Under the pieces are notes generated by a model. The model saw nothing but the letters and a program-made list of their open reading frames with translations, was not told the DNA's origin and ran no database searches. DNA of 31,393 nucleotides, from positions 608 to 32,000 of the forward strand of contig JAADGH010000027.1 in the NCBI GenBank assembly GCA_013152475.1, written 5' to 3'. A program made the translations under genes and the position numbers. Positions 7,443 to 29,788 of the stretch are shown here, piece after piece; positions within the stretch are counted from its first letter, which is position 1; each line of letters begins with the position of its first letter. This DNA is from Planctomycetota bacterium. Lineage in GTDB: Bacteria; Planctomycetota; Brocadiia; JAADGH01.

Positions 7443-7840
7443 GTGTATAATGTATTTATTTCCTGCAACAGTGAGGACTACTCGCACGCCAAGGCGGTGT
7501 ACGACCATCTCGTTTGGAATGGCCGCAATGCCTTTTTCTGTGAGGCGACGTTGCGGGAAAAGGGGAAAGCCGATAGATTGATGAAGCCCTTGAGGGCGCG
7601 CAGCACTTGATTGTTGTGCTGTCTTCTGCCGAGAATGTGCGGGCCGGGTGGGTGGAATCGGAATGGGGTGCTTTCGTCAACGAGAAACGCTCAGGCCGGA
7701 AACAGGGGAACGTCGTGAGTGTGCTCTTCGGCGAGGTCTCGATCGAGGAGCTTCCTCTTGCACTGCGCCAGTACGCCGTGGTGAAGTGGGACAAGCAGGG
7801 AAGGGACCATATCTTGAGCCTCCTGTTAGTGGTGGGGTAG
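7443..7840 (+). pseudogene. TIR-domain gene disrupted by a frameshift
   Basis: The GTG at 7443 opens VYNVFISCNSEDYSHAKAVYDHLVWNGRNAFFCEATLREKGKAD (TIR N-terminus). The reading frame must shift by +1 near 7572-7577 to continue IDEALEGAQHLIVVLSSAENVRAGWVESEWGAFVNE...ELPLAL (TIR core with the conserved Glu). Confidence 0.7.
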
Positions 7841-8167: not shown

Positions 8168-10243
8168 GTGATGCCGCAGCCAAGGGATACGTCAGCCGAG
8201 CCGGGATCGCGCGACCGCTTGAGACTGTTCTGGCAGAATCATCTCCGTCCATGGTGGCAGGAGTATCAGTGGCCGGCGGTTGGGATGCTGGGGTTCGTTG
8301 CGCTGGTGCTGGGTTGCATGGGGTTTGATGGGTACTTCCGCGCGCTTGGGCAGGCGAGATCCCCTCTGGATATCTTCTATCTTGCCGTCCAATTGTTTGT
8401 GCTGGAATCTGGTTCTATCCCGGGACCGATGCCGTGGGAGCTTGAGGTAGCGAGGCTGCTCGCCCCTGCTGTTGCGGCCTATGCCGCGGCAAGGGCGTTG
8501 GCGGTCATTTTTCACGACCAGATCCAGGCGGTTCGGCTCCGCTTCATCAGAGGACACGTGGTCGTCTGTGGTCTGGGGCGGAAGGGATTTCAGCTTGTCC
8601 GGGACTTCCGCGAGCAGGGCGAACGCGTCGTCGTCATTGAACTCAACGAGGGGAACGACGAGATTGGGAGTTGTCTGGATCTCGGCGCCCTTGTGCTAAC
8701 CGGCAACGCACCGCATGGATCCCTCTTGCGGAAGGCACGAGTTCATACTGCAACACGCCTCGTTGCCGTCTGCGGTGATGATGGGACGAACGTGGAGATT
8801 GCGGTTCAGGCGTATAGACTTGTGCAAGACAAACGCGTCTTGGTCGGGGACATCTGGGGGTGCCTTCTTGATTTCGTAGATCGTGAGCCCTGCAGGCGAT
8901 CTGTACAGTGCCACTCTGGTGCACACAGGACCGAGGTGCATCAGTTCCGGGCTGCATGGCGCAGGTTCCTTGCGCAAACAGGTCGCTGGTGCTATCAGAT
9001 CGCGGACCTGGGGGTATGCACATTCTTCGCCCAGGGCAGAGCAGCACGCGGCGTTCTTACCGAACACCTGAGAAGCACACTGTCGCCTTCCGTCGGAAGT
9101 GTGGAGTGCTATGTGCACATTGTCGATCTCGGGTTGTGCAGGCTGTTTGGACAACACAGAGCGTTCACCGAGAGAGAAGATCCCTTCGAGGCGAGGCTTT
9201 TCAACATATACGAAAGCAACGCCCGTCTGCTTCTCGAGAAGCATCCCTTGGGCCGCGGCCTGGTCGGGGCGGAGGACCCGCGCACCGTCCATCTTGTGTT
9301 GGTGGGTTTCGGCCAGATGGGGGAGAGCGTCGCCTTGCAGGCCGCGAGAGTCGGCCACTACGCCAACGGCAAGAAGCTGCGCCTCACCATCATCGACCGG
9401 GAAGCGGAGAAGAGGAGAGGGATCTTCTACGGGCGGTACCCGCAGTTTGGCCAAATCTGCGACGCCACGTTCATGTCCGCGGATGGAGAGGATTCCGACG
9501 TGCTGAACAGTATAGGCCAATGGGCCAGCGACCCAGAAATGGTCACGACCACTGTGATCTGCTTGGACGATGATTCGCGCGGCCTGTCGTGCGCCCTGGC
9601 ATTGCTCCAGAAGCGGAAGAAGGGTGGCATCGCTCCTCTACTCGTCCGCATGTCCGGCAACGCGGGCCTGGGCGCTCTACTTCGGGATGAGGTATGTAGC
9701 CCTGAGCTAGTGGGTAATATTGACACTTTCAGTCTCGCCTGCACGTTGGGGATGCTGTTGAACGAAAGCATCGACATCCGCGCCAGAGCGATTCACCGGC
9801 AGTACGTCGAGCAACGTCGGCGTGAGGGCCATAATGCTGAGAGTGATCCCGCAATGGCAGATTGGTATTGCCTTGATGAGTCCTACAAGAATTCGAACCG
9901 CCAACAGGCCGATCATATACCTGTCAAGCTCCGAGCGATTGGGTGCTACAGTTTGCGTACCAAGGAACACCTTGCTGCCGTGATAGAATTTACGGACGAG
10001 GAAGTCGAACTACTGGCCAGGATGGAGCACTCGCGATTTGTGGCTGAGCGCCTGCTTGGGGGTTGGACCTACGGGCCGGAAAGGAACCTTGCGGAGAAAA
10101 GAAGCCCCTACCTGATCCCCTGGGATGATCCGCGATTGCCTGAAAGCGTGAAGGATTATGATCGCCAGTTTGTGCGAGATATCCCGAGATTGCTTGCCAT
10201 GGCAGGGGAAAGGGTCTATCGAAAGCCTGCCACCCATTTGTAG
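8168..10243 (+). CDS. membrane protein with two TrkA-N/Rossmann-type domains and a C-terminal RyR-type domain
   Basis: N-terminal hydrophobic helices (WPAVGMLGFVALVLGCMGF; IFYLAVQLFVLE; LLAPAVAAYAAARALAVIF). HVVVCGLGRKGFQLVRDFREQGERVVVIE is a GxGxxG Rossmann motif. A second one is VHLVLVGFGQMGESVALQAAR. C-terminus MEHSRFVAERLLGGWTYGPERNLAEKRSPYLIPWDDPRLPESVKDYDRQFVRDIP is RyR-like. The likely ATG is at 8171. Confidence 0.75.
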   Translation: MMPQPRDTSAEPGSRDRLRLFWQNHLRPWWQEYQWPAVGMLGFVALVLGCMGFDGYFRALGQARSPLDIFYLAVQLFVLESGSIPGPMPWELEVARLLAPAVAAYAAARALAVIFHDQIQAVRLRFIRGHVVVCGLGRKGFQLVRDFREQGERVVVIELNEGNDEIGSCLDLGALVLTGNAPHGSLLRKARVHTATRLVAVCGDDGTNVEIAVQAYRLVQDKRVLVGDIWGCLLDFVDREPCRRSVQCHSGAHRTEVHQFRAAWRRFLAQTGRWCYQIADLGVCTFFAQGRAARGVLTEHLRSTLSPSVGSVECYVHIVDLGLCRLFGQHRAFTEREDPFEARLFNIYESNARLLLEKHPLGRGLVGAEDPRTVHLVLVGFGQMGESVALQAARVGHYANGKKLRLTIIDREAEKRRGIFYGRYPQFGQICDATFMSADGEDSDVLNSIGQWASDPEMVTTTVICLDDDSRGLSCALALLQKRKKGGIAPLLVRMSGNAGLGALLRDEVCSPELVGNIDTFSLACTLGMLLNESIDIRARAIHRQYVEQRRREGHNAESDPAMADWYCLDESYKNSNRQQADHIPVKLRAIGCYSLRTKEHLAAVIEFTDEEVELLARMEHSRFVAERLLGGWTYGPERNLAEKRSPYLIPWDDPRLPESVKDYDRQFVRDIPRLLAMAGERVYRKPATHL

Positions 10244-10446
10244 AGATGGTTGGGGCGTTACAACAGGACAACAGGAGGAGGACGTTTGAAAGGTTTCTCA
10301 GCTTTTGAGACAGATATCTTCGGGAATTAGATGTAGTAGATAGTACTTAATCTGACAGTTTCGCTGAACTGTTCCATAGCAATGCCTGATGGACAAGAGA
10401 ATGCCGGCAACGTGGGATCTGATGAGGACGAGGAACTGGTGTCCAC

Positions 10447-10847
10447 CTATTCCTTGAGCGATCCGCATGCGGCCTCAAGCTCCCGCAATTTCTCGCTCAA
10501 TTTCTTCATTTCCGGAGCGTCCATGCCAATCGCATGAAGTTCCTGCCTCGCGCTCCTTGCCAAGTCCACAAACTTCCGTATCTCTTTCGGGTTGGTCGAT
10601 GACCAGGCTTTTCGAATTCTTTCGTTCGCGATGCGGCAAATCTCAGCCCTGGCGTAGTATCGACGCTTGAAGGCCCCTTGTCATAGACATCAGGGCCACA
10701 AAAGGAGTATTTGGCTTCGTAATCGCACGCTTGGGCATACCAATATGACTCAGTGCCGCCAACTCGCGCCTTCAGTCGACCGATCAAGCTAACGATGTCT
10801 GCCTGTATCATACCGATGTCTGGTCCTTCGGCTCTTGCTTTCGACAT
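10447..10847 (-). pseudogene. small hypothetical gene interrupted by a frameshift
   Basis: GGAGG lies 6 nt before the ATG (complement of 10845-10847). It reads MSKARAEGPDIGMIQADIVSLIGRLKARVGGTESYWYAQACDYEAKYSFCGPDVYDKG. A protein-like reading then continues only in another frame: FKRRYYARAEICRIANERIRKAWSSTNPKEIRKFVDLARSARQELHAIGMDAPEMKKLSEKLRELEAACGSLKE, with the stop at 10447-10449. Confidence 0.45.
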
Positions 10848-11349
10848 GGCATGCCTCCATCCGTTCAGGGGGAAATGGTTCCGCATACACTGTGACTACC
10901 GAGCGAATGTCGTGCCGAGTGCCCGGACCGTCAGAAAAGCCGAGACAAACCCTTGTGAGGCAGGCGAGTACGACAACGGTTTCGGGGAAAGAAAATTGAG
11001 TTCCGGCGTTGAGTTATCGATTGTTGGGGAACTGGAGAGTGGCGATGCCCAATTGCGATAAGCGTGCAAGTGGAAGATGGCAGCAAGCTTGGGGCAAGAA
11101 ACTGAATTTTGAGATGAAACGGCACGGGATATGATGCTTCGTTGCTTGCTGGCGGGGGCCGTCAGAGTAGGCATGGTACACAAGAAAAGGATTGCGCTAC
11201 CAAGCCGCAGCCTGTAACTTGGGTATGTCAGGCCAGCCAATTACAGAAACCCGTTGGTGGCGGCGTTCAGCATTGCGCGAGGCCGTAACCGTGGCGATGC
11301 GCATGGATCCTGCAAGGGTATCGAAAGCCCATGGAGAAGGAGGAAAATC

Positions 11350-11796
11350 ATGTCGGCAAAACCATTCGGACTGGCCATGAAGGCGTTCATCTACGATGAG
11401 GAAGGACGCTGTCTTCTTATCAGACGATCCATGAACTCAAAATTCTTCGCCGGCCAGTGGGATTTGCCGGGAGGCAAGGTGGATTCCGGCGAAGAATTCG
11501 ACGATGCCATGGCTCGGGAGGTGGCCGAAGAGACGGGCTTGACCATTACACTGGAAGGGGTTGCCGGAGCGAGTGAGCACGAACTGCCGCACATTCGTGT
11601 CGCGATCCTGTTCATGGAAGCGCGTGTTGCGTCGGGAGATGTCCAGTTGAGCAGTGAGCACGACGAATTCAGATGGGTATCACGGAAGGAACTCGGCAAC
11701 ATGGACATCTCCGATCAATTGAGTCCCTTTGTTTTGAGCTATCTTGAATCGAGCAATAAGTCGCAGATCATCTCGGACGAAAGGGGCCATGGATAA
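11350..11796 (+). CDS. NUDIX hydrolase
   Basis: Complete Nudix box GKVDSGEEFDDAMAREVAEETGL (GX5EX7REUXEEXGU). AAGGAGGA lies about 5 nt before the ATG at 11350. The track ORF from 11254 is an upstream extension. Confidence 0.9.
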   Translation: MSAKPFGLAMKAFIYDEEGRCLLIRRSMNSKFFAGQWDLPGGKVDSGEEFDDAMAREVAEETGLTITLEGVAGASEHELPHIRVAILFMEARVASGDVQLSSEHDEFRWVSRKELGNMDISDQLSPFVLSYLESSNKSQIISDERGHG

Positions 11797-11840
11797 TAGC
11801 TCTGAACAATAATTTGCCGGTTTTACAAAGGAGACATCCG

Positions 11841-14537
11841 ATGTCTAAGAAAGGCAAAGCGACTGAGACGAAGCACGAACGCGAACAGATCGTGAAGTAT
11901 GGAAGACTGTATCCTCGGTATAAGAAGTTCGCAGAGGTCCTCCGCCATATTCTCGAGAAAGCCGCGAAGACGCGAGCCCCCCTTGCCATCGTTCAGACAC
12001 GCCCGAAAAACATCGCAAGTTTTGCTGAGAAGATTCAGCGCAAAAAGGAAGAATACAAAGACCCGGTCAATGAGTTTACCGATCTCTGCGGAGGTCGTGT
12101 AATCGTGCACTTCCGGCGGGAAATTGATGCGATATGTGACTTCATCAAAAACCACTTCAAGGTCGATTGGGACAACAGCGTGGATGTTGTCGAACGACTC
12201 AACCCCACGGAGTTCGGCTATCGATCCGTCCACTATATCGTGTCGTTCCGGAAAGGTGTTTTTCCGACGGAAGAGATCCATGTCAAGATACCGGAAACAG
12301 TGCTGGGTCTGAAGTGCGAAATCCAGGTCAGGACCATCCTCGAACACGCGTGGGCCGACATCTCTCACGATCTGAGCTACAAGAGCGCTTTTCCCGTTCC
12401 CGAGAGGTGGATACGGGATATTGCACGTCTGGCCGCCATGCTCGAAGAAATTGACAGCGACTTCGAACGGGTTCAAGAGAGACTTCACAGTTACGCGGCC
12501 AGTTACGGCGAATACATGATGCCGGAGAAAGTCCAGGACGAAATCGACAAGCTTCGGATTGTGCTGAAGTATGACAGGAACAACGCAGAACTGGCGGACC
12601 GTATCGGCAAACTTGCCATCACGATCGGCGAATGGGATATTGCGATTCAAGTCCTTTCTCCGTATGCCGACTCCGGTCACCCGGCGGTGCTGAGGGATCT
12701 GGGGGTCGCGCTGTGCAAAAAGTATGACGGAAACAGGAAGAACGCCAAATATCGGCAAGGTCAATGCTACTTGGAGTTGGCTGCCGAACCTGAGCATCAG
12801 GATGCCGATGCGATGGCTTCCCTTGCTGGAACGTGGAAGGAAACTGATGAGGAAAAGGCACGGGAACTCTATCGGCGGGCCTACGAGGTCGATCCATCGG
12901 ATGCCTATCCCTTGGGCAACTATCTGGACCTGGAAATCATTCGCCAGAAAAACACATCCATTGTCTCGTTGATGAATCCGATGATTGAGGTGGCGGTTCA
13001 GAGATGCAGAGACCAAGCTAATGTGGGTATGAATCTGCCCTGGGTGTTCTATAGCATCGGCAAGTTCCGCCTCCTTCAGGGGAAGCCATACGAAAGCCTG
13101 GCTGCTTATGCCAAGGCAATCGACGTCAGCAGTGCGACGTTCATGATCGAATCCTCGTTGGAATCCCAGGATCGGCTTGCTGTGGTTGAGGAGCATCTAA
13201 CAGGCCTCCAGTGGGTGAGGATGTTGCTCCGCGTGGGATTGGCTGCCCACCTGATAAAGCGCCAACGAGAGGCCTTGGAGCAACGTCGTGCGGCGCGCGA
13301 GGACCTGAAGGAAAGCAAAGCAAAGCTTCGAGAGTTGGAGAAAGGGAGAAGGAAGTCACGCAAGGAGATCGCCGAACAGAAACAAGAGGTCAAGGATGCG
13401 GAGACCGGTGTCAAAGAGGCGCAGCGAGCGGTGACCCAAGCGAGGAAGGAACTTAGGGCGGCGAGATCGAAGTACATTCTGAAGAGCCAGCTCGCGTTCC
13501 GGAAAACACAACCCATCAACCAGCCTATAGTGATCGTGGTTGGCGGATGCGATCCTCAACTTAAGAAAGAAATGGCAGGATACAGATATCTCCTACTGGA
13601 GGCATTCAGGGACTTTGAGGGTACGGTCATATCCGGGGGCACAACGGCTGGAATCTCGGGCATCGTCGGCGAGATCGGCAAGAGATATCGGGGCCGCATC
13701 CACACGATAGGCTATCTTCCTCAGGCTCCGCTACCTGCCGATGCTAAGCTGGACAAGCGCTACGGTGAGGTCCGTCGGACGAAAGGCGAGGGGTTCACCC
13801 CCCTGGAACCCCTCCAGAACTGGATGGACATACTCGCCTCGGACATCGATCCGGTTGAGGTCCGCGTTCTCGGCGTCAATGGCGGCAAAATTGCGGCCGC
13901 GGAGTATCGCATCGCCCTGGCACTGGGCGCCCAGGTGGCCGTGGTGGAGGAGAGTGGCCGCGAGGCCGCCCGGTTGGCTCCCGACGAGGACTGGAGCGAC
14001 CTGCCGAACCTGATCCATCTTCCTGCCGACCCGATGACCATTCGTGCGTTCATTGGGTCGGGAAGCGGCAAACTGCCGGAGAAGATTCGGGATACCGTCG
14101 CCAAGGGCGTTCATGAGGAATACCGCCGCAATCAGGAAAAGGAGCTGCACAGCGGGAAGCCTTCGATGGCAGAATGGGCCAGCCTGAAGGAAAATCTCAA
14201 GGAGTCCAATCGCCAGCAGGCCGACGACATCTCAGCAAAGCTTCGCCGGATCGGCTGCACGGTAGAGCGCGTGAAGAATCGCGAGATTGTGCTCATGACG
14301 TTCACGAAGGCTGAAGTGGAAGCGATGGCGGTTATGGAGCACGCCCGATGGAATGTAGAGCGCCTCCTCGACGGCTGGACGTGGGGGCCGCAAAAGGACG
14401 TCGACCAGAAGATCAGCCCCTATCTGGTGAGCTGGGAAAAACTTCCCGAAAACGTCAGAGAATGGGACCGCCAGGCCGTTCGCGCCATCCCCAAACTCCT
14501 CGCCGAAGTAGGGCTGGAGGTGCGGCGGAACAGATAG
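11841..14537 (+). CDS. multidomain RelA/SpoT-type nucleotide pyrophosphokinase - TPR - coiled coil - SLOG (LOG/TRPM-N-like) - RyR-type domain protein
   Basis: - Synthetase motifs: TRPKNIASFAEKIQRKK, DLCGGRVIV, GYRSVHYIV, CEIQVRTILEHAWADISHDLSYK.
- TPR-like helices at about aa 250-400.
- Charged coiled coil: KRQREALEQRRAAREDLKESKAKLRELEKGRRKSRKEIAEQKQEVKDAE.
- SLOG-like: IVIVVGGCD...VISGGTTAGISGIVGE...GVNGGKIAAAEYRIALALGAQVAVVEESGR.
- RyR-like: MEHARWNVERLLDGWTWGPQKDVDQKISPYLVSWEKLPENVREWDRQAVRAIP.
- AAAGGAGA lies 6-7 nt before the ATG at 11841. Confidence 0.85.
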   Translation: MSKKGKATETKHEREQIVKYGRLYPRYKKFAEVLRHILEKAAKTRAPLAIVQTRPKNIASFAEKIQRKKEEYKDPVNEFTDLCGGRVIVHFRREIDAICDFIKNHFKVDWDNSVDVVERLNPTEFGYRSVHYIVSFRKGVFPTEEIHVKIPETVLGLKCEIQVRTILEHAWADISHDLSYKSAFPVPERWIRDIARLAAMLEEIDSDFERVQERLHSYAASYGEYMMPEKVQDEIDKLRIVLKYDRNNAELADRIGKLAITIGEWDIAIQVLSPYADSGHPAVLRDLGVALCKKYDGNRKNAKYRQGQCYLELAAEPEHQDADAMASLAGTWKETDEEKARELYRRAYEVDPSDAYPLGNYLDLEIIRQKNTSIVSLMNPMIEVAVQRCRDQANVGMNLPWVFYSIGKFRLLQGKPYESLAAYAKAIDVSSATFMIESSLESQDRLAVVEEHLTGLQWVRMLLRVGLAAHLIKRQREALEQRRAAREDLKESKAKLRELEKGRRKSRKEIAEQKQEVKDAETGVKEAQRAVTQARKELRAARSKYILKSQLAFRKTQPINQPIVIVVGGCDPQLKKEMAGYRYLLLEAFRDFEGTVISGGTTAGISGIVGEIGKRYRGRIHTIGYLPQAPLPADAKLDKRYGEVRRTKGEGFTPLEPLQNWMDILASDIDPVEVRVLGVNGGKIAAAEYRIALALGAQVAVVEESGREAARLAPDEDWSDLPNLIHLPADPMTIRAFIGSGSGKLPEKIRDTVAKGVHEEYRRNQEKELHSGKPSMAEWASLKENLKESNRQQADDISAKLRRIGCTVERVKNREIVLMTFTKAEVEAMAVMEHARWNVERLLDGWTWGPQKDVDQKISPYLVSWEKLPENVREWDRQAVRAIPKLLAEVGLEVRRNR

Positions 14538-14582
14538 GCTGTTGTCACCCAACGGCCGGATGAATGCCGAAAGGAGAACCAG

Positions 14583-14810
14583 ATGGCCGACGTTTTCATC
14601 AGTCACATTGAAGAGGACGCTGAAGTAGCTGAGACCATCGCGCATAGCTTGGAGGGGGCCGGGTACACGACATGGTATTACGAGCGTGACACCAGTAGCG
14701 CGCGAGCCGATTTCGCAGAGGTGCGAGGTGATCGTCGCTGGGTAACACATGCAGCAGCGCGAGAAGCAGTGCTTGATGAGCTCACAAGAAAACGGCACAA
14801 TAGCGCTTGA
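14583..14810 (+). pseudogene. decayed TIR-domain gene (N-terminal strand/helix intact, remainder scrambled)
   Basis: A good RBS (AAAGGAGAACCAG) is followed by MADVFISHIEEDAEVAETIAHSLEGAGYTTWYYERD, a typical TIR start. After about aa 35 the TIR pattern is lost. TIR-like pieces (EVIVAG; ENGTIALDP) appear in other frames up to about 14870. Confidence 0.55.
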
Positions 14811-14930
14811 TCCGCGTCTTCGTTTCGTCCGCGTTCCGCAATATGCAGGAGGAACGTGGGTCAACTGAGATGTCTGCGAAGTTGGATCAGCTCTGACGTC
14901 CAGTTCTGGGCAAAGACCCGTCTCTTGGGC

Positions 14931-16637
14931 TCACACCCCCTTCATCAACCAGTCCCGCTCGTGAAATACGGCGTCGAGGGCGCTGTCGAGATGGTCGTCA
15001 ATGATACTGCGCCAGTAGGTAACGGCATCGACGGGAACGGAGAACAGTAGGTCGTCGAAGTGGGAGAGTTTCTCGATCAGTCCTTCGAATATGCCGAAGG
15101 TGGACTTGCCGTGGAAGAGCAGCGGCTGCTGGCAGAGTCTTTCAAGTTCGAGCATGTGGTGGCGCATAGTCCTGTGGACATTCTTGAGCGCCTTGGGTTC
15201 TGTCTTGCTTTTGAGCACGCGCTGGAAGGCATTCCGAAAGGCCAAGATCAGGTCCTGCGCCTCAAGAAGGTGGCGCAGGCATTCGACGGCGTGCCGGCTT
15301 AGCTCATCGGCAGGCAGCTCGTCAGGCTCGATCGCTGCGGCCTGGCCCAGAAGGCGAAAGACCCCGCGCAAGTGTTTCGCGTTGAGACTATGTCTTGGGA
15401 CGATGTTGTGAAACACCGCATAGAGATGGGCAAGCACCGACTTCAATTCGCGTGCATTGCCGGGCCAGCGATAGGTTTGCAGTTCTGAGATGATGTCGGG
15501 GGGTAATGTCCAATTGCTGTTCCCTGTGATCTTTGCCCAGAATGCCTTGGCCAGCAAGGCCACATTTTCGGGGTTATCCTGGAGTCTCGGCGTGGAGATG
15601 ACGAACCATCGGAGGCGGTAGTACAAGTCTTCTCGAAACTGGCCGCTGTGAACCATGGACGGCAGATCGCGGTTGGTTGCGGCGATCACTCGAGCATTCA
15701 CAGGGGTCTCTTTCTGCTCACCAATTCTCCGGACCTTATGGTCCTGTATGGCACGCAATATCTTTGTTTGATGATCGAGCCTGAGTTCGCCAATCTCATC
15801 AAGGAACAGAATTCCATTCTGTGCGGACTGCCACAAGCCTACCTTATCCCTCGTCGCGCCGGTGAAGGCTCCCTTTATATAGCCGAATAGCTCCGATTCC
15901 AGCAGTTCGCTTGGAATGGCACCGCAGTTGACCGGTACGAAGGGCCCCCTTCTGAGCGGACCGAACGTGTGAATGCATTTTGCGACGAGCTCTTTGCCAG
16001 TGCCTGTATCGCCAAGGATGAGCACCGGGTTGTCGTCTTCTTTGGCGAGGACAATGAGTTTCCTAGCAAGTTCCACTTTTTTGCATGTGCCCACAAATCG
16101 TTCTGCAAGCGCCTTTGGGACCTCGACCTTGGCCAACAGAGAGATGGGCGACTCGTCTTTGCTCCCTGCCGGGTCATCCTGAAGGGCCTCCTTCCAGAGT
16201 TCCCGGAATTGATCTTCTGGAACAGCAATGAGGCAGGCCCGGAGCCGGTCGTTCCCTTCGGCCTTGGGATTAAGGAGGGCTTTGTCGGCTCTTTTAAGGA
16301 GGGCCTTTACGCCTCCCTTCAAATGCCCTGTTGTTCCGTATTTTGCGCGAATCAATCGAATTCCGTCTTGCCCCTTCAAAAGCCGGTAGAGCTCAATCTC
16401 TTCGTTTTGCACGCCTTTGTCGACAACAAGGTCATCGAGTTTTGTCAGTTGCTCAATGTCGATAGATGAGATGACGTAGGCCGTTGGCCGTTCCGGTGAG
16501 CACGCTTGCTTGAATGCTGTCTTAGTGTTCCATTCCGCTCTGCGGCATGCAAGATCTTTCTTTTTCGGTTCCTCGTCGGTTTTCGGCTCCCTGTTTGGAT
16601 CAAGAAAGAGCTCGACCGCACTTATGTTCATCTTCAT
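14931..16637 (-). CDS. sigma-54-dependent AAA+ transcriptional activator (bEBP) with unknown N- and C-terminal domains
   Basis: Walker A LILGDTGTGKELVAK. Sigma-54 contact loop YIKGAFTGA (GAFTGA). Walker B ILFLDEIGEL, then RVIAATNRDL, EDLYYRL, RWPGNARELKSV. GGAGGA RBS. No Fis-type HTH is recognisable in the ~150-aa C-terminus. Confidence 0.85.
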   Translation of the reverse strand: MKMNISAVELFLDPNREPKTDEEPKKKDLACRRAEWNTKTAFKQACSPERPTAYVISSIDIEQLTKLDDLVVDKGVQNEEIELYRLLKGQDGIRLIRAKYGTTGHLKGGVKALLKRADKALLNPKAEGNDRLRACLIAVPEDQFRELWKEALQDDPAGSKDESPISLLAKVEVPKALAERFVGTCKKVELARKLIVLAKEDDNPVLILGDTGTGKELVAKCIHTFGPLRRGPFVPVNCGAIPSELLESELFGYIKGAFTGATRDKVGLWQSAQNGILFLDEIGELRLDHQTKILRAIQDHKVRRIGEQKETPVNARVIAATNRDLPSMVHSGQFREDLYYRLRWFVISTPRLQDNPENVALLAKAFWAKITGNSNWTLPPDIISELQTYRWPGNARELKSVLAHLYAVFHNIVPRHSLNAKHLRGVFRLLGQAAAIEPDELPADELSRHAVECLRHLLEAQDLILAFRNAFQRVLKSKTEPKALKNVHRTMRHHMLELERLCQQPLLFHGKSTFGIFEGLIEKLSHFDDLLFSVPVDAVTYWRSIIDDHLDSALDAVFHERDWLMKGV

Positions 16638-16919: not shown

Positions 16920-16936
16920 TTGGCATAACTTGTGCA
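16920..16936 (+). promoter_or_regulatory. candidate sigma-54 (-24/-12) promoter
   Basis: TTGGCATAACTTGTGCA has GG (16922-16923) and GC (16934-16935) separated by exactly 10 nt, as in the TGGCAC-N5-TTGC consensus. There is one mismatch in each element. It lies about 70 nt upstream of the first operon gene (17007) and is divergent from the bEBP gene. Confidence 0.55.
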
Positions 16937-17006: not shown

Positions 17007-17651
17007 ATGGTCATATGGATATTGGATCAATCAAGACACTGGAAACCTGTCGGGCTGAAAGACGGATTGATCAGCGTTGGCGTGAGCGATGGGCGAGCCG
17101 CCGTAGTGAGTCCAGATGAAGGCAATGCCGTGGCGTCGTTGATCCCTTACCAGGATCTCAATGGCCGCAGGCGCTGCTTTCTGATCTGCCGACGGGGTAG
17201 CCACGTGCGCTGCAAGGGCCTCCCTATTTTGGCGGGGGTACGGGTGCTTTCGGACAAAGATGAGATTGCGCTCGGCAACGGGCCGGAAGCGAGATTCTAC
17301 TATTCCCAGGAGTCCAAGCCGCAGATCGTGCCGTTCGAGGAGGGACCAAGGCCCACCTACTGCGCACGATCGAAGGCCAGGATCACCCAAGGCACTCCTG
17401 CGGTACAGTGCCCCTCGTGCGGGCTTTGGTACATCGAGACGGACGAGATGCCAGCGTACACCTACTGCGGGGAGCCCTGTGTGGGATGCGGGCGCCCGAC
17501 GACCACTGACTATTCGTGGGCGCCCGATCCCCTTCCCGCCCTACGACCAGAAGGCCAACGGTTATGGGAGAAGTGGTGTTCCCCCAGGACCATGAAACCG
17601 CAGGTGAGCAAACGGAGCAGTAAGGTGACTCCCGCAGCGGATTCGAGGTGA
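17007..17651 (+). CDS. hypothetical protein, FHA-like N-terminal domain plus CxxC...CxxC zinc ribbon
   Basis: LISVGVSDG...FLICRRGSHVRCKGLPILAGVRVLSDKDEIALGNGPEARFYY resembles the FHA strand pattern. C-terminal CPSCGLWY...YCGEPCVGCGRP. First gene after the sigma-54 promoter candidate. Confidence 0.6.
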   Translation: MVIWILDQSRHWKPVGLKDGLISVGVSDGRAAVVSPDEGNAVASLIPYQDLNGRRRCFLICRRGSHVRCKGLPILAGVRVLSDKDEIALGNGPEARFYYSQESKPQIVPFEEGPRPTYCARSKARITQGTPAVQCPSCGLWYIETDEMPAYTYCGEPCVGCGRPTTTDYSWAPDPLPALRPEGQRLWEKWCSPRTMKPQVSKRSSKVTPAADSR

Positions 17652-17657
17652 GACCAG

Positions 17658-18815
17658 ATGATTACACAGGAACGCTATTCGAGATTGAAAGCAATCTGGG
17701 GTGCACCCAATCTGTCTTGCCTCCGATCCAAGACCGTTATGGTCATCGGTTGTGGAAATCTCGGCGGGCAGATCATTCCGCACCTTGCGATGCTTGGCGT
17801 CGGTATGGTGCTTGTGGACCACGACCGGGTGAAAGCGCCGAACCTCGGGAATCAGGCGTTTGATGTGGCGCACATGGAAAAATCGAAGGTTTCCGGCCGT
17901 GAAGAGCAAGTGAAGAGGATCAACCCGGAGTGCAGAATCGAGACACTGGATGCGCGAGTTGAAGCCCTCGGTATGGGGGTGTTCCGAGATGTCGATATGG
18001 TGTTCTGCTGTTTGGACAATCTGGCCTCCCGTCTCTGGGTGAACGAGGCATGCCTTCGGTTGTCCGTGCCTTGGGTGGATGCCGCTCTGGATGGATCCGG
18101 CAAGACTACATATGCCAAGGTCGCCTGTTTTCCGAATACGGACGGGTCGGCCTGTTACCTCTGCTCGTGGGATGCGGACGCTCTGCAGGGGACTCTTCGC
18201 ACAGAAAATGGCGGATGCAAGTCCTGGTGGGACATCGGCAATGAAGATGCCCCTCCAACGCTGAGTTCATCGTGTCAAGCTGCAGTGGCGGCCGGCATTC
18301 AATGCGTTGCGGGACTTCGGATGCTGCTGGGCGATGGGGAAGCCGACTCCTCCCACGAGATCATCGTCAATCCAGAGGCAGGCTTCATGCGACGGGTGTG
18401 TCTGAAGGCGAATGTGGAGTCATGCATCGCGCCCCACGAGCCGTTCATGGATGTGGCAAGAGCGGGTGCTGGCCGCGCGTTGTCGGTCAACGACCTGTTC
18501 AGTCTGGCGGAGCGAAAGCTCGGCCCGGGTGTGGAGCTGGTCTTGCATGGGAGGGATTTGCTGACGACAGTCGATTGTGCAGCGTGCCAGAAAGGGAACG
18601 GTATCTGGCGGATGACCAATAACAGTGCGAAGAGCAAGATGACATGCCTGTGCGGAGCGCCGCTTACGCCGACTCCGCTGAGCGTGCTCAGGCAGATGGA
18701 CCGAGGCGCCGTGACGCCGATCCTGACACACACATGGGCGGAACTTGGATTGCCGCGGAAGGACATAGTCACCGCGAAGAAGAACGGTGCGAGTGTTCAC
18801 TTCCTCATCGAATAG
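17658..18815 (+). CDS. ThiF/MoeB-family E1-like adenylyltransferase
   Basis: RYSRL at the N-terminus. Rossmann VMVIGCGNLGGQIIPHLAMLGVGMVLVDHDRV. CCLDNLASRLWVNEAC (DN..R motif). Two CxxC pairs (CYLC, CAAC) as in the ThiF/MoeB zinc site. Only 6 nt after the previous gene. Confidence 0.85.
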   Translation: MITQERYSRLKAIWGAPNLSCLRSKTVMVIGCGNLGGQIIPHLAMLGVGMVLVDHDRVKAPNLGNQAFDVAHMEKSKVSGREEQVKRINPECRIETLDARVEALGMGVFRDVDMVFCCLDNLASRLWVNEACLRLSVPWVDAALDGSGKTTYAKVACFPNTDGSACYLCSWDADALQGTLRTENGGCKSWWDIGNEDAPPTLSSSCQAAVAAGIQCVAGLRMLLGDGEADSSHEIIVNPEAGFMRRVCLKANVESCIAPHEPFMDVARAGAGRALSVNDLFSLAERKLGPGVELVLHGRDLLTTVDCAACQKGNGIWRMTNNSAKSKMTCLCGAPLTPTPLSVLRQMDRGAVTPILTHTWAELGLPRKDIVTAKKNGASVHFLIE

Positions 18816-18828
18816 GAGCATCGACGAG

Positions 18829-19374
18829 ATGAAAGGCGAAGACAGCGTATTCAGGAAGTTCCTCGATAACAGCTACGACCGAGGACGCGAACTGGAACGG
18901 GAAAGTGATATCCTGCGAATCGAGGCGCGACGCGGGGAACCGCCGACGGGTTTTCTGTGCAGCTTTGTTGGTGTCGAACACTTGGTTCGAGATCCGGACG
19001 GCACGGTAGAGAAGTGCACAGACCCTATCCTGATCGAGGTGCAGTTCCCCCCGGACTACCTGAAGTCGTGCGATCCTCATCTGGGGCTGCGGGTTGTGGG
19101 GATGTTGAACCGGAACATCTTTCACCCCAACATCCGTCCCCCGGCAGTCTGTCTCGGGAATGCGCTCCGGCCCGGGACAACGCTCGACGAGATACTGAGG
19201 TACGTCTACGAGATTATCAGCTATCAGAACGTCACGCCGAACGAATCGGATGCATTCTCGGCAGAGGCGTGCCGTTACGTGAGAGAGCACCCGGGGGTGC
19301 TGAGCGGATTGCGCATTCCGCCTCTACGCAGGAGAAAGTTGAGGAACGTGACCACTACGGTGAGGTCGCTCTGA
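18829..19374 (+). CDS. E2-like ubiquitin-conjugating (UBC-fold) protein
   Basis: VQFPPDYL...NRNIFHPNIRPPAVCLG carries the HPN motif followed by Cys at the canonical E2 spacing. The track ORF from 18787 would overlap the E1 end. The ATG at 18829 is used here. Confidence 0.8.
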   Translation: MKGEDSVFRKFLDNSYDRGRELERESDILRIEARRGEPPTGFLCSFVGVEHLVRDPDGTVEKCTDPILIEVQFPPDYLKSCDPHLGLRVVGMLNRNIFHPNIRPPAVCLGNALRPGTTLDEILRYVYEIISYQNVTPNESDAFSAEACRYVREHPGVLSGLRIPPLRRRKLRNVTTTVRSL

Positions 19375-19391
19375 CGGGAGAAGTGGAAAAC

Positions 19392-20291
19392 ATGAACGAT
19401 GGAATTCACACACGTCTCTGGGGCCCAGGTACAGGAAGCCGCCCCCAGTCGCCTCTGGACAGGTTGGAGAAAGAGGTGAACGGATTTGTGAGGACACCGG
19501 ACGGTGCGGGCAGATTCGCCGTCGGAACCGCAGAGGTTGATGTGCGCCAGGACACGGAGCAGTGCCTGGTGCTCTCGGCCCCGCTCAGGAACGGATACGT
19601 CACGAAGATGGAGTTGTTGCGCCGTCAGCATTTCATCCAAGGTCCGTGCAAGTTCGCCGGCAATGGGCGGGGCAAGGTCCTGATCGCCGAGGCATTTCTG
19701 CGGCGTTCCAAAGAGCGGCTGATGGAGGCGTTCGAGGCGGCAACGGAGGGAATCGAGGCGGCAACACGCCTCGTTTCATGCAGCAACGCGAATTCCCAGG
19801 CGGCCCCCGGCTTCTTCCTGCGGGCAATCGACACGAAACAGAAAGACTTGGTGGAACGCTCGCTGGATGATCTCGGGGTGTCTGCGGCGCTTCGTGAAGA
19901 CGGCGTCTGGGCATGGTCTGTCGATACGAGCCGTCTACTGCATAGGATCCGGGTGAGGATTTCCGAAGGAAAGGAGAACTACTATGTTCATGTGGAAATC
20001 ACTGGCGACCCTTTGGGGACGCTTCTATCGACCGAGAGCCAAGAGGCCGTGGCCCGATTTGTTCTCGAAGCGAATCACAGCCTCCGTTTCGCTCGTTGCT
20101 CTGTGGCCGATGTTGAGAACGATTCCGGCCCCATGTTTCTTGCGGAGGCGGTCGTGCCGATAACCTTGTTCGACCATGAGCTGGCCAAGGCCATGATCGA
20201 CAGCGTTGTAGTGGCAGGGGAACAGGTTCGCGATGAAATCAACGCACTATGTCAGCCTGATGTCGCCCGCGCCTACCTCGGGATGCGGTGA
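19392..20291 (+). CDS. hypothetical protein (299 aa) embedded between E2 and Ubl genes
   Basis: Uninterrupted frame starting MNDGIHTRLW at the ATG at 19392, 17 nt after the E2 stop. The 444-aa track ORF from 18957 is an upstream extension through the E2 gene. No catalytic motif recognised. Confidence 0.65.
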   Translation: MNDGIHTRLWGPGTGSRPQSPLDRLEKEVNGFVRTPDGAGRFAVGTAEVDVRQDTEQCLVLSAPLRNGYVTKMELLRRQHFIQGPCKFAGNGRGKVLIAEAFLRRSKERLMEAFEAATEGIEAATRLVSCSNANSQAAPGFFLRAIDTKQKDLVERSLDDLGVSAALREDGVWAWSVDTSRLLHRIRVRISEGKENYYVHVEITGDPLGTLLSTESQEAVARFVLEANHSLRFARCSVADVENDSGPMFLAEAVVPITLFDHELAKAMIDSVVVAGEQVRDEINALCQPDVARAYLGMR

Positions 20292-20330
20292 TACTGGGTC
20301 TCGTGGAAAAATGGAAGGAGGTGAAGGAAT

Positions 20331-20597
20331 ATGGGAGAGCCAAGAGGGTTCATCAGATCATTGTCCGTGACGGATTGGAACCAACAGAAACGAGTGGATT
20401 TCGACGGGAAGATCGAACTGGACAGCTCTGTGGGAGAGATACTGAAGGAAGCGGTCCACAGGCTCGACCTGCCGCGGAACACGGCCTACAGCGCCGTCTT
20501 GGAGGGAAGAAAGCTGATCAACAGCGAAACCCTCGACAAGGCCGGCGTGAAAGAAGCCGACGAGATCATGGTCACCCCCGAGGTGACTGCCGGATGA
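20331..20597 (+). CDS. small ubiquitin-like (beta-grasp-sized) protein ending in Gly
   Basis: 88 aa, with a strong RBS (GGAAGGAGGTGAAGG) upstream. The C-terminus is ...MVTPEVTAG-stop, so a C-terminal Gly is exposed without processing. It sits between the E2 and JAB genes. Confidence 0.7.
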   Translation: MGEPRGFIRSLSVTDWNQQKRVDFDGKIELDSSVGEILKEAVHRLDLPRNTAYSAVLEGRKLINSETLDKAGVKEADEIMVTPEVTAG

Positions 20598-20744
20598 TCG
20601 GCAGGATCGATACGGCTACGGACCTCACGTTTCTTCAGTCTCGGCAGTGAGCCCCAAGCGCCGATGGCGGGCGAATATGGAGATGGCTGGGCTCCCGCGA
20701 AGGGGTAGCGGGAAGCTCCAGCCGGACAATAGGCATGTGATCGT

Positions 20745-21842
20745 ATGGAAAGGAAAGCTACGGTGAGTATTCCGGCAGCAGCGACCTCTCAGAACAAGTA
20801 CACGTTCACGCTTGAGTTGGCCGATCTGGAGCTGACCAAGATTTTGCACCGGGAGCCGCTCCAGGCCGTCTCCAGACTTGTCGAGCACTTCATTTTCGAG
20901 GTGCGATGCCGCGGACTCATTGATGACGGTGCGGAGGATCCCCCGTCCGAGGTGATCCCGGTCTGGTCGGGCGGTTCCGAAGGCCCGTTCGTCAATGGCA
21001 TCCGTGTGCGTCTCGACTTCAACGGAGACAAGGATGCTGTGGTGAAGGACTTCGGCATCACACACTTTGCCAGCCAAGCCCGTACCGTTGCGTCCAACCT
21101 GATTGTGCGCGGTGTGCTCAAGCAGGACGAGCGATTCCACTATCTGATCAGCGCGTTGCGCAGTGATGTGCAGACCGAAACGAGCGGCCAAGAGCCAAAA
21201 CGAGGATTCCACACCTCCGTTCGGACGCCGAGAATCGCGTTTCTCCCAACGCCTCTCGCCTCTCTGTCGTCCACTCTCGCCACAGATGAGGCGCAGGAGA
21301 AATTCTTGGATGTCTTGATTCCCAGGGTGGTCGCCGACGAGATCCTTGGGCGTGTCGAGCAGTCCAATGAAGACGAATTGGGCGGATTCCTGATAGGCAA
21401 CCTTTGTCGCGATCCATCGTCCGGTCGGGCATTTGTGCTGGTGAACGCGCAGGTTGAGGCCCGCGAAGGGACCGAAGCGACGTGCACGAGCTTCAAGTTC
21501 ACCGACCGAACATTCCTGGCGGCATCTCACTGTCTCCAATCGCGACGGCGAAAGGGCGAGCGCATCGTGGGCTGGTACCATAGCCATGTGTTCTGCAGGA
21601 AGTGCGAGAAGCGGAACACATGTGACGTCGGCACCGTGTTCTGGTCGCAGAGCGACCAGACGGTACACGAGTCGGCATTCCCACACCCCTACCAGTTCGG
21701 TTTGGTGGTGGGCTACGGTGGCGGCGCCAAGAACACCGGAAACGGCCCATACGCATTTAAGTTGTACGGTTGGCGGGACTGCATGATTACCGAACGACCG
21801 GTCACCATAGTGAATGGAGTGGATGATGGTGAAGCAGAATAA
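20745..21842 (+). CDS. JAB/MPN (JAMM) metallopeptidase with ~190-aa N-terminal extension
   Basis: JAMM elements are present: EDELGGFLIG (Glu), GWYHSH (HxH), WSQSD (SxxD). A Cys-rich insert FCRKCEKRNTCD lies between HxH and SxxD. Confidence 0.8.
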   Translation: MERKATVSIPAAATSQNKYTFTLELADLELTKILHREPLQAVSRLVEHFIFEVRCRGLIDDGAEDPPSEVIPVWSGGSEGPFVNGIRVRLDFNGDKDAVVKDFGITHFASQARTVASNLIVRGVLKQDERFHYLISALRSDVQTETSGQEPKRGFHTSVRTPRIAFLPTPLASLSSTLATDEAQEKFLDVLIPRVVADEILGRVEQSNEDELGGFLIGNLCRDPSSGRAFVLVNAQVEAREGTEATCTSFKFTDRTFLAASHCLQSRRRKGERIVGWYHSHVFCRKCEKRNTCDVGTVFWSQSDQTVHESAFPHPYQFGLVVGYGGGAKNTGNGPYAFKLYGWRDCMITERPVTIVNGVDDGEAE

Positions 21843-23520: not shown

Positions 23521-23547
23521 AGCGACCGAAGAAAGGCAGGAATTCCG

Positions 23548-25254: not shown

Positions 25255-25300
25255 GCAGTGACCTGACGCGGAAGATGGACCCGATTGACGAAAGGAGCAC

Positions 25301-25516
25301 ATGATGAGTGGCGAAAGAGAAATATTCCGTCGTCGTCCAGGAAGCAACGATCCAAACGATGAATTGAATGGCCCAGATGCCGAGCGACTTCAGAATGCAA
25401 GGAACCAAGCTGGGGATTTTGACTCGGTTATCGGGCGGGCCCTTGCGTCTTTGCGAAACCAGAAGAACTCGGCAGAGAACATCCTGAAGTCCATAAGAAA
25501 CCCGGGCGGAGAATAA
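25301..25516 (+). CDS. Pup-like small protein modifier ending in GGE
   Basis: 71 aa, with AAAGGAG 3-6 nt before ATGATG. Polar and low-complexity N-half. The C-terminus NSAENILKSIRNPGGE-stop resembles M. tuberculosis Pup ENAEDFVRAYVQKGGQ, with the AE at the same distance from the end. The stop lies 1 nt before the next start. Confidence 0.7.
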   Translation: MMSGEREIFRRRPGSNDPNDELNGPDAERLQNARNQAGDFDSVIGRALASLRNQKNSAENILKSIRNPGGE

Positions 25517-25517
25517 G

Positions 25518-29286: not shown

Positions 29287-29788
29287 ACACTATGGGCACG
29301 CCCACATCATCCACCTCTGCGGGCGGCCTTTTCGGACGGTGGAGGAAATGGACGAGGAGCTGATACGGCGCCACAATGCCGTCGTGAAGGACAGCGACCT
29401 CGTCGTCCATGTGGGGGACTTCACCCTCAAGAACAAGAGCCGGGCCAAATCGTACATCTCCCGCCTCAAGGGGGAACACGTCTTTCTCCGTGGAAGCCAC
29501 GACAGATGGCTGAAGGAGGCGCATGAGATTTGGGAAAAGGAGATCGCGGGAGAATACGTCGTCGTTTGCCACTACGCCATGAGAGTATGGCCGAGATCGC
29601 ACTACAACAGCTGGCAGCTCTACGGCCATTCCCACGGCAGACTCGATCCCATCGGCAAGCAGTGGGACATCGGTGTGGACAACAACGACTATTATCCCGT
29701 ATCCTTTGAGCGGATAAAAGATATCATGGCGGAGCGGCCGGACAATCCCAATCTGATCAAGGGCGGCAAACCGCGGACCCGCCGTTGA
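29213..29788 (+). CDS. calcineurin-like metallophosphoesterase
   Basis: FFTADEHYGH (motif I), VVHVGDF (GD), FLRGSHD (GNHD-like), LYGHSHG (GHxH). The start is ambiguous: GTG 29213, GTG 29240 or ATG 29258. Confidence 0.75.
   Translation: MPRGVSIAEVKPIGGMDVLFFTADEHYGHAHIIHLCGRPFRTVEEMDEELIRRHNAVVKDSDLVVHVGDFTLKNKSRAKSYISRLKGEHVFLRGSHDRWLKEAHEIWEKEIAGEYVVVCHYAMRVWPRSHYNSWQLYGHSHGRLDPIGKQWDIGVDNNDYYPVSFERIKDIMAERPDNPNLIKGGKPRTRR

Follow-up and report, generated by a model that had tools for sequence, protein, structure and literature searches.

The DNA analyzed here (hereafter the window) is a stretch of 31,393 nucleotides from a Planctomycetota bacterium (assembly GCA_013152475.1, contig JAADGH010000027.1). 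It carries the gene of a small NUDIX hydrolase followed by that of an 898-residue protein, here called the giant protein, in which a RelA/SpoT-type synthetase is fused to TPR, SLOG and RyR domains. Our analysis shows that these two genes are the conserved and horizontally mobile core of a nucleotide-signaling conflict module, and the giant-protein system probably represents a new pathway of bacterial immunity or signaling with links to TIR. We favor, with a probability of roughly 45%, a reading in which the giant protein would be a ligand-gated alarmone synthetase within a Thoeris-like TIR network, with the NUDIX hydrolase as its reset; this Thoeris-like reading rests on the sequence and its genomic context. 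The two core genes and the parts of the giant protein are located as follows.

11350–11796, forward strand: NUDIX hydrolase, 148 aa, PF00293, Nudix box intact
11841–14537, forward strand: giant protein gene (also called the RSH gene), starting at the ATG at 11841, 898 aa, five parts
11841–12521, forward strand: RelA/SpoT-type pyrophosphokinase (synthetase) domain, residues ~1–228; PF04607, Foldseek, motifs
12522–13202, forward strand: TPR-like alpha-solenoid, residues ~229–455; weak Pfam matches to TPR-S, TPR_1 and TPR_2
13206–13481, forward strand: charged helical hairpin (coiled coil), residues ~457–548; AlphaFold2 helices 457–502 and 508–548
13515–14057, forward strand: SLOG domain of the TRPM type (LSDAT_prok), residues ~560–740; PF18171
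14070–14537, forward strand: tandem RyR (Repeat12-like) module, residues ~745–899; PF02026

The original prediction, made from the sequence alone, had described this gene pair. Both open reading frames (ORFs) are real and the domain calls pass profile and fold searches; the spacings, given there as 45 and 46 nt, measure 44 nt between NUDIX and the giant gene and 45 nt between the giant gene and the TIR ORF downstream of it. The giant protein is identical to NCBI GXP25_02815, a "hypothetical protein" of a Planctomycetes metagenome-assembled genome (MAG). Its five parts follow the order synthetase, TPR, helical hairpin, SLOG and tandem RyR. An AlphaFold2 model with 22 homologues as input (predicted local distance difference test, pLDDT, 85; predicted template modeling score, pTM, 0.71) resolved five regions: the synthetase (1–228), an alpha-solenoid (229–455), a hairpin (457–548), a Rossmannoid domain (560–740) and a helical C-terminal module (745–899).

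The synthetase is recognized by PF04607 at residues 62–191 (E 2e-20; 73.6 bits, cut-off 27). It had been predicted to be motif-complete, and it is: the general RelA/SpoT homologue (RSH) motifs RxKxxxSxxxK, DxxGxR, GYxSxH and ExQxRT...H...YK are all found, and RPKxIASFAEK, TDLCGGR, EFGYRSVHY and EIQVRT..H.W...H...YK are invariant among the 22 aligned homologues. These motifs align residue for residue with the small alarmone synthetase (SAS) structures 3l9d and 2be3 of the RelQ family. Foldseek searches of the PDB returned the SASs RelQ and RelP with TM-scores of 0.7–0.78 (RelQ 5dec, 0.78), and phmmer gave E ~1e-10 against RelQ/RelP versus E 0.5 against CapRel (7ztb/9erv), a solved toxic SAS (toxSAS); the toxSAS comparison covers CapRel, the toxSAS represented in the PDB set searched. 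The domain is a predicted pyrophosphokinase nearest to the housekeeping-type RelQ/RelP. The likeness to toxic SASs with antitoxins suggested by the original prediction is weak, as RelQ/RelP are nearest, CapRel is not close, and the size of the protein is far above that of any toxSAS.

The TPR call rests on weak Pfam matches, which also occur in homologues, and is backed by the helical hairpins of the model (H229–H453) and by Foldseek matches to SPY and consensus TPR structures; the region is strongly conserved family-wide. The predicted coiled coil appears in the model as a helical hairpin with ~45 residues per helix, but it is shorter or missing in most aligned homologues and is better described as a lineage-variable insert. 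The SLOG domain is matched by PF18171 (LSDAT_prok) at residues 571–725 (E 2e-8; 34 bits, cut-off 25.4). Its glycine-rich motifs read GGTTAGISGIVGE and NGGKIAAAEYR, and the motifs GGTTxGxSG and NGGxIxxxE are near-invariant across the family. In a separate model of this domain (pLDDT 89), the top 25 PDB matches were all TRPM MHR1/2 domains, including ADP-ribose (ADPR)-bound TRPM2 (E ~1e-6). The RyR module is matched by PF02026 at residues 824–904 (E 5e-14; 52.8 bits, cut-off 27.4), and phmmer matched it to RyR repeat domains and a Bacteroides RyR protein. Foldseek aligned it with human RyR3 Repeat12 crystallized with ATP, ADP and dantrolene (hits 6uhh and 9l9b) over ~190 columns, so the entire tandem repeat is covered. 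Repeat12 is the dantrolene site. Repeat 1 of the module is degenerate, whereas repeat 2 is canonical and contains H835, W838, S860 and D877.

These four residues are the positions at which a recent finding on RyR domains can be mapped. A 2026 preprint reported that phage RyR-domain proteins (RyDEP) bind 2'/3' cyclic ADP-ribose (cADPR) at nanomolar affinity or hydrolyze the TIR-made signal, with H75, W78, H100 and D117 as the ligand residues (PMC13232231); RyR Repeat12 is known to bind ADP and ATP (PMC12627627, PMC13642953). Mapped by the fixed spacing +3, +25 and +42, the RyDEP positions fall on H835, W838, S860 and D877 of the window protein. Family-wide, conservation amounts to 64/68 sequences for the His, 78/79 for the aromatic residue and 61/67 for the Asp.

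The small enzyme preceding the giant protein is a clear NUDIX hydrolase (PF00293, E 2e-22; 79.9 bits, cut-off 21.1), and its Nudix box (pattern GX5EX7REUXEEXGU) reads GGKVDSGEEFDDAMAREVAEETGL and is intact. The nearest solved structure is 3grn, a 'MutT related protein' (E 1e-24), followed by BdRppH, NudI, MutT and NudG. 3grn, ~50% identical to the NUDIX partner, is an uncharacterized structural-genomics protein. By similarity the partner is assigned to the MutT/NudG/NudI-like clade of nucleoside triphosphate (NTP) pyrophosphohydrolases, not to the ADPR-pyrophosphatase clade.

To describe the neighborhood of relatives, 80 loci were sampled with 6 kb on each side and their ORFs grouped by homology clustering. 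The original prediction had expected a NUDIX neighbor to recur among homologues, which proved correct: 52/80 loci have an ortholog, and so do 41 of the 61 whose flanks extend for 1 kb or more in both directions. In 47 loci it lies within 250 nt of the giant gene (36 upstream, 11 downstream; same strand in 44), and where NUDIX is more distant, a gene for a membrane protein with TrkA_N and RyR domains (TrkA_N-RyR) usually stands between the two. NUDIX is also fused to the N-terminus of the giant protein in two relatives, P0306 (1,006 aa) and P0319 (1,025 aa), a strong sign of functional coupling. E. coli MutT and NudG break down (p)ppGpp (PMC5845004, PMC7593582), and the Bacillus Nudix enzyme NahA trims it (PMC7584652). 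The MutT/NudG-type clade, together with fusions that echo the HD-synthetase order, favors a predicted alarmone hydrolase.

A protein search with the giant protein gave 1,342 matches, the best 120 of which are all full-length (820–1,050 aa, 47–60% identity). Scanning one genome per GTDB species, we found relatives in at least 328 species, ~0.2% of the total, from more than 12 bacterial and archaeal phyla. The bacterial hosts belong to Planctomycetota, Chloroflexota, Bacteroidota, Gemmatimonadota, Actinomycetota, Desulfobacterota, Verrucomicrobiota, Acidobacteriota and others, and the archaeal ones to Bathyarchaeia, Thermoplasmata and Methanomicrobia. The window protein is 53–61% identical to copies from Chloroflexi, Acidimicrobiia (Actinomycetota) and Bathyarchaeota but merely 36–41% identical to several other Planctomycetota copies. 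Identities that cut across phylogeny in this way indicate horizontal transfer. A phage origin was considered and rejected, as the family is essentially missing from viral contigs: a scan of 2.9 million gave two partial, synthetase-only matches.

At E<=1e-30, HMMER with the SLOG-RyR half retrieved 808 cluster representatives (clustering at 50% identity), and stand-alone-looking SLOG-RyR proteins of ~375–393 aa as well as one member with a C-terminal KaiC/RecA-like ATPase were seen. The relatives compared as architectural variants were P0306, P0319, P0282, P0321, P0343 and P0105. The giant gene of several MAGs is broken into a pair of ORFs, with a separate frame for the RyR end (L024, 8388–9131; L041, 7532–7930; L052, 4583–5032; L067, 7490–8485), which reflects either pseudogenization or assembly indels.

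TIR genes stand out among the neighbors. TIR_2 is the commonest Pfam family in co-directional flanking ORFs (23/127), followed by WD40, STAND nucleoside triphosphatases (nSTAND1, NACHT, AAA_16) and DUF4062. With an iterated local TIR hidden Markov model (HMM), 39 TIR ORFs were detected in 28/80 loci; 33 of the 39 are co-directional, and 25/38 are no more than 700 nt from the core block, against 14.6% expected (binomial p 1e-12). The survey of homologues thus also bore out the TIR neighbors that had been anticipated. Every TIR domain that could be aligned, 41 of 41 with the window copies counted, keeps the catalytic Glu. Directly after TrkA_N-RyR, locus L022 encodes a near full-length ThsB match (PADLOC, 5e-47). 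Among intact relatives, L031 carries TrkA_N-RyR, TIR, RSH and TIR-TPR genes, and L035 and L045 have a TIR-repeat gene on either side of NUDIX and RSH. While the original prediction cast TIR as the effector, the flanking TIR proteins, which combine TIR with repeat sensors or are ThsB-like and have the Glu intact, fit signal generators better. In the nearest Planctomycetota relative the operon reads unknown-patatin-NUDIX-giant, the patatin being a CBASS-type phospholipase effector (8e-47). Transposase genes are recurrent neighbors, too, and some loci lie among metabolic genes, e.g. downstream in L083.

Upstream of the core, the original prediction overlooked a second RyR protein and a frameshifted TIR gene. 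Together with the TIR ORF downstream they complete the layout of the window: TIR (frameshifted), transmembrane (TM)-TrkA_N-RyR, a 1.1 kb gap, NUDIX, giant protein, TIR stub.

7443–7840, forward strand: small stand-alone TIR gene, frameshifted by a single base at ~7574–7577
8168–10243, forward strand: TM-TrkA_N-RyR membrane protein; Pfam TrkA_N 5e-16, RyR 3e-10
14583–14810, forward strand: ORF of a truncated TIR gene, TIR-like only at 14583–14693, 37 codons (beta-A/alpha-A/beta-B)

In the membrane protein, two TM helices with a re-entrant 'YLAVQLFVLESG' are followed by TrkA_N, an RCK-like Rossmann domain, by another Rossmann-like domain and, at the C-terminus, by the tandem RyR module. The re-entrant motif resembles those of K+/Na+ channels. 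In the family alignment the re-entrant "D..YLtlQLf.LESG" is conserved between the two TM helices, whereas an insert of ~75 residues (aa ~235–320) is unique to the window copy and missing from the other aligned members. At least 471 homologues exist, many of them named 'Kch' or Kch-type channels by the Joint Genome Institute (JGI), and the gene adjoins the giant gene in ~20/80 loci. The protein is a candidate channel-type effector. A C-terminal module of ~170 residues is common to it and the giant protein, consisting of AIHE.Y...W..L.E.LKESNRQQA.HI..KL followed by the RyR repeat, and both show the same ligand-residue pattern. A third RyR family of 850–1,000 aa has only the tandem RyR in common (33% identity), with a weak AAA signal in one relative. 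This AAA-like protein flanks the giant gene in L004, L019, L068 and L075, and L086 contains it together with TIR and TrkA_N-RyR, without a synthetase.

The RyR domain, a passive extra in the original prediction, is probably the key shared sensor, since it is the only module that the three co-located protein families share and its phage counterparts bind cADPR signals. In CBASS (cyclic-oligonucleotide-based antiphage signaling systems), Thoeris and type III CRISPR, second-messenger effectors consist of one sensor module on differing bodies.

The window has intact genes for NUDIX, the giant protein and TrkA_N-RyR, while both adjacent TIR genes are disrupted, one being a stub and one frameshifted, so that no intact TIR gene lies next to the module. 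The downstream ORF had been predicted as a decayed TIR gene with a good ribosome-binding site. The TIR start and the site (GGAG) are there; decay of the reading frame is not. The ORF covers only profile positions 1–35 of 122 of TIR_2 (Pfam), and its 37 residues are 70% identical to a TIR-TPR gene directly 3' of the giant homologue in L031 (an Anaerolineales MAG) and 59–68% identical to the TIR-LVIVD gene of L045 (tblastn). Three-frame translation and tblastn with eight TIR proteins gave no TIR similarity in any frame beyond 14693, and the remainder of the ORF is unrelated sequence abutting the 3' end of a convergent sigma-54 activator gene. A frame-decayed full-length gene was rejected because only the first 37 codons match, which indicates a truncated 5' stub rather than frameshift decay. 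By its sequence the stub is a remnant of a deletion or rearrangement.

The upstream TIR gene sits directly before TrkA_N-RyR. Three-frame translation yields an N-half VFISCNSEDY...REKGKAD and a C-half IDEALEGAQHLIVVLSS...WVESEW; the local TIR HMM matches it at 1.3e-8, and the catalytic Glu is present in the motif WVESEW. Its best match is the small TIR of L052 (Verrucomicrobiota), a locus that also has NUDIX and the giant gene; blastx reports it as two high-scoring segment pairs in different frames. The frameshift near 7575 may be real or a MAG assembly error. As both adjacent TIR genes are disrupted, the window module is either cut off from local TIR input or reliant on two intact TIR-TM genes 14–16 kb downstream, which are possible sources of a TIR signal in trans. 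Between TrkA_N-RyR and NUDIX, the gap at 10244–11349 holds no convincing ORF and gave no homologue in blastx against all locus ORFs of the 80 loci. It may be a scar of lost genes.

These observations suggest a possible sequence of events. Neighboring TIR proteins, either TIR joined to TPR, WD40 or LVIVD sensor repeats or ThsB-like ones, would sense an invader and use NAD+ to make an ADPR-derived signal, e.g. a cADPR isomer. The tandem RyR and/or the TRPM-type SLOG of the giant protein would bind this signal and possibly process it, and ligand binding would de-repress the RelQ/RelP-like pyrophosphokinase. The synthetase might then make a 3'-pyrophosphorylated nucleotide, (p)ppGpp or (p)ppApp, leading to growth arrest. 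The MutT-like NUDIX would break down the alarmone (the incoming signal being a less likely substrate), thereby setting a threshold and resetting the system, a role analogous to that of the HD hydrolase preceding the synthetase in Rel/SpoT. TM-TrkA_N-RyR and the AAA-like 850–1,000 aa RyR protein could be parallel effectors reading the same ligand. What we infer in this scheme is the identity of the ligand, the direction of signaling, the product, the NUDIX substrate and the role in defense. As to the conflict system first envisaged for this locus, the domains, the NUDIX conservation and the TIR enrichment stand, whereas the toxSAS analogy is weak, the roles given to TIR and RyR need revision, and the local TIR genes are broken. 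A bolder version, tentative and on the unlikely side, holds that TIR-made, NAD-derived signals are received by host RyR and TRPM-type SLOG domains, which then switch on the alarmone synthetase in a new Thoeris-like immune pathway leading from NAD+-derived signals to the making of (p)ppGpp or (p)ppApp, with NUDIX as reset, TrkA_N-RyR as sister effector, and such proteins as the prokaryotic source of the TRPM2 and ryanodine-receptor sensor modules.

Several observations weigh against the ligand-gated synthetase in a TIR network. TIR genes occur in 35% of loci within 6 kb on each side, NUDIX being the constant partner; TIR input is thus not obligatory or is supplied in trans. The TIR-repeat proteins could be independent single-gene systems sharing defense islands. 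Half of the TrkA_N-RyR homologues in the sample occur by themselves. The whole giant protein, TPR region included, is 50–60% identical across phyla, which is atypical for invader-sensing components. The phosphate-contacting His of RyDEP (H100) is Ser, Thr or Asn in 63/75 family sequences, so the ligand may differ, and the NUDIX clade is, by similarity, unlike that of the ADPR pyrophosphatases. The acceptor (GDP/GTP, ATP or tRNA) cannot be read reliably from the active-site residues. RyR similarity between the giant protein and TrkA_N-RyR is raised only weakly for the same versus different loci (253 vs 236, permutation p 0.003, mixed ranks), and since shared ancestry could account for it, we do not take it as evidence.

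Three other explanations have to be considered. The pair could be a self-contained writer and eraser resembling a toxin-antitoxin system, in which the giant protein is a toxic or growth-arresting synthetase neutralized by NUDIX through hydrolysis of the product; TPR, SLOG and RyR would sense a cellular cue or the protein's own product, and the TIR genes would be mere defense-island neighbors. The constancy of NUDIX (52/80 loci, 47 adjacent) agrees with this, as do the N-terminal fusions in P0306 and P0319 that mirror the Rel/SpoT order of hydrolase and synthetase, the degradation of (p)ppGpp by MutT and NudG (PMC5845004, PMC7593582), the known neutralization of toxSAS toxins by small alarmone hydrolases (PMC7229694), the 65% of loci without a TIR gene in view, and the PADLOC candidate models PDC-S07 and PDC-S33, which match the NUDIX and RSH domains. 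We nevertheless regard it as unlikely: RelQ/RelP, rather than the solved CapRel (E 0.5), are the nearest relatives of the synthetase, a protein of 898 aa with three sensor-type domains is unlike any toxSAS, and neither the operonic TIR adjacency (p 1e-12) nor the sharing of RyR with co-located TrkA_N and AAA-like proteins is explained. Ordinary stress physiology, with an elaborate SAS and a NUDIX turnover enzyme unrelated to conflict, would account for the nearest similarity to the housekeeping SASs RelQ/RelP, for the very high sequence conservation and for metabolic surroundings such as those downstream in L083. It seems very improbable for genes that are present in only ~0.2% of species, show phylogeny-incongruent identities across bacteria and archaea, recur beside TIR, STAND, patatin and transposase genes and have decayed partner genes in the window.

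The direction of signaling might also be reversed. The giant protein would then write the signal, a RelA/SpoT-made messenger being read by the RyR/SLOG domains of the protein itself (feedback), of TrkA_N-RyR and of AAA-RyR, and NUDIX would erase it. RelQ responds allosterically to pppGpp, the product it makes, and 5ded is among the Foldseek matches. RyR Repeat12 binds ATP and ADP (6uhh, 9l9b; PMC12627627, PMC13642953), the RyR proteins co-locate with the synthetase, and the Ser at the position of the phosphate-binding His could reflect a differently phosphorylated ligand. Known signaling systems, however, fuse the sensor domain to the effector and not to the writer, L086 has TrkA_N-RyR and AAA-RyR with TIR but no synthetase, and a second RyR protein is found in only ~25% of loci. 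We consider this arrangement quite unlikely and retain the ligand-gated synthetase as the preferred reading.

Comparison with known systems places the module between several of them. RelQ (SAS1/YjbM) and RelP (SAS2/YwaC), the best sequence and structure matches, share the synthetase fold and all catalytic motifs, but they are single-domain proteins of ~210 aa without fused sensors, whereas the giant protein adds TPR, hairpin, SLOG, tandem RyR and a NUDIX partner and has a patchy, horizontally transferred distribution. The toxSAS systems (FaRel/ATfaRel SAH, CapRel, PhRel; PMC7229694) are similar in being mobile and patchy and in pairing a synthetase with an adjacent potential enzymatic neutralizer. 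Their toxins are small and essentially single-domain, and their hydrolase antitoxins are HD-type small alarmone hydrolases (SAH), NUDIX not being a known class of toxSAS antitoxin. Long RSH proteins of the Rel/SpoT type have the hydrolase immediately N-terminal to the synthetase, as in P0306 and P0319, but it is HD there and NUDIX here, and TPR-SLOG-RyR replaces the C-terminal TGS, ACT and other domains.

Thoeris (ThsB TIR and ThsA SIR2-SLOG, with the types described later; 10.64898/2025.12.03.692087) likewise has a Glu-intact TIR operonic with a fusion of a SLOG sensor to an output domain. The Thoeris hallmark of a sensor-type domain fused to an output domain is seen in the joining of SLOG/RyR to the synthetase, where ligand binding is predicted; the giant-protein system differs in its alarmone synthetase output, its TRPM (LSDAT) SLOG, the extra RyR, and the presence of TIR in ~35% of loci with NUDIX constant. 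Phage RyDEP (PMC13232231) share the PF02026 Repeat12-like fold and the conserved His, aromatic and Asp contacts to cADPR/ADPR. They are small anti-Thoeris sponges or glycosidases, while the RyR of the giant protein is host-encoded, tandem and fused to effectors, with His changed to Ser/Thr/Asn. Animal TRPM2 (MHR1/2 SLOG and NUDT9-H NUDIX) and ryanodine receptor Repeat12 have the same two sensor folds and the association of SLOG with NUDIX, and here a channel-like partner protein bears the RyR module. Unlike these channels, the giant-protein system is soluble and bacterial or archaeal, its NUDIX is MutT-like rather than NUDT9-like, and its sensors are carried on a pyrophosphokinase, not a pore.

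The rest of the window, downstream of the TIR stub, contains the following features.

14931–16637, reverse strand: sigma-54 enhancer-binding AAA+ activator; PADLOC RtcR_PspF2-like, 2e-83
16921–16935, forward strand: plausible -24/-12 site TGGCATAACTTGTGC, ~70 nt before the divergent ORF at 17007
17007–21842, forward strand: Bil-like bacterial ubiquitination-type operon
21814–27098, forward strand: canonical pupylation cluster
27152–28303: ClpB-like AAA gene, after the pupylation cluster
28441–29286 and 29795–30823, forward strand: two intact TIR_2 proteins with hydrophobic C-terminal segments
29213–29788, forward strand: calcineurin-like metallophosphoesterase, between the two intact TIR_2 genes

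The sigma-54 activator has an uncharacterized N-terminal domain of 175 aa, and homologous activators stand beside the giant gene or TIR/RyR genes in L052, L056, L058, L065 and L086. Control of the module by this activator was rejected: matches to the -24/-12 consensus show no excess over chance (38 vs 31 expected), none upstream of NUDIX is convincing, and the one plausible site faces the divergent E1/JAB operon. Scans for sigma-70 promoters and terminators were not above shuffled expectation, and no riboswitch or other RNA was matched by Rfam at gathering thresholds in the whole window. The Bil-like operon encodes a Cys-rich protein, E1/ThiF, a 444-aa protein (possibly E2-like), a small beta-grasp-like ORF at ~20331–20597 ending ...VTAG, and a JAB deubiquitinase-like protein. 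The pupylation cluster comprises an Mpa/ARC-type AAA ATPase, a Pup-ligase family gene, a Pup-like 71-aa ORF at ~25301–25516 that ends in GGE, and a second Pup-ligase family gene. With its Bil-like operon of E1, ubiquitin-like protein and JAB and its TIR genes, beside a canonical Pup cluster, the wider region looks like a conflict island.

The original prediction had not recognized the fusion as a characterized one, and we found no published characterization of it. Full-text literature searches gave no description of the architecture or of a host RyR-domain effector, though the 2015 SLOG/LSDAT paper may mention such fusions. The terms RyR, RelA_SpoT and LSDAT did not occur in the text or the supplements examined of the survey of Thoeris types V–XI (10.64898/2025.12.03.692087), and the paper that classified RSH proteins names no partner of the NUDIX, RyR or TPR kind. 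The family is found mostly in uncultivated Planctomycetota, Chloroflexota, Gemmatimonadota, Desulfobacterota, Bathyarchaeia and similar groups, which is probably why screens for defense systems missed it.

If the ligand-gated synthetase is confirmed, it would give bacterial RyR domains, of which only phage counter-defense versions have been characterized (2026), their first cellular, host-side function, and it would join TIR/NAD-derived signals and RelA/SpoT alarmones in one protein. The synthetase-hydrolase logic of the stringent response would gain a swap of NUDIX for HD. The giant protein would also provide a simple soluble bacterial model for the reading of adenine nucleotides by the TRPM SLOG domain and ryanodine-receptor Repeat12. 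The system is therefore of high interest, as it would connect TIR signaling, alarmones and the prokaryotic ancestry of the TRPM and RyR sensor domains.

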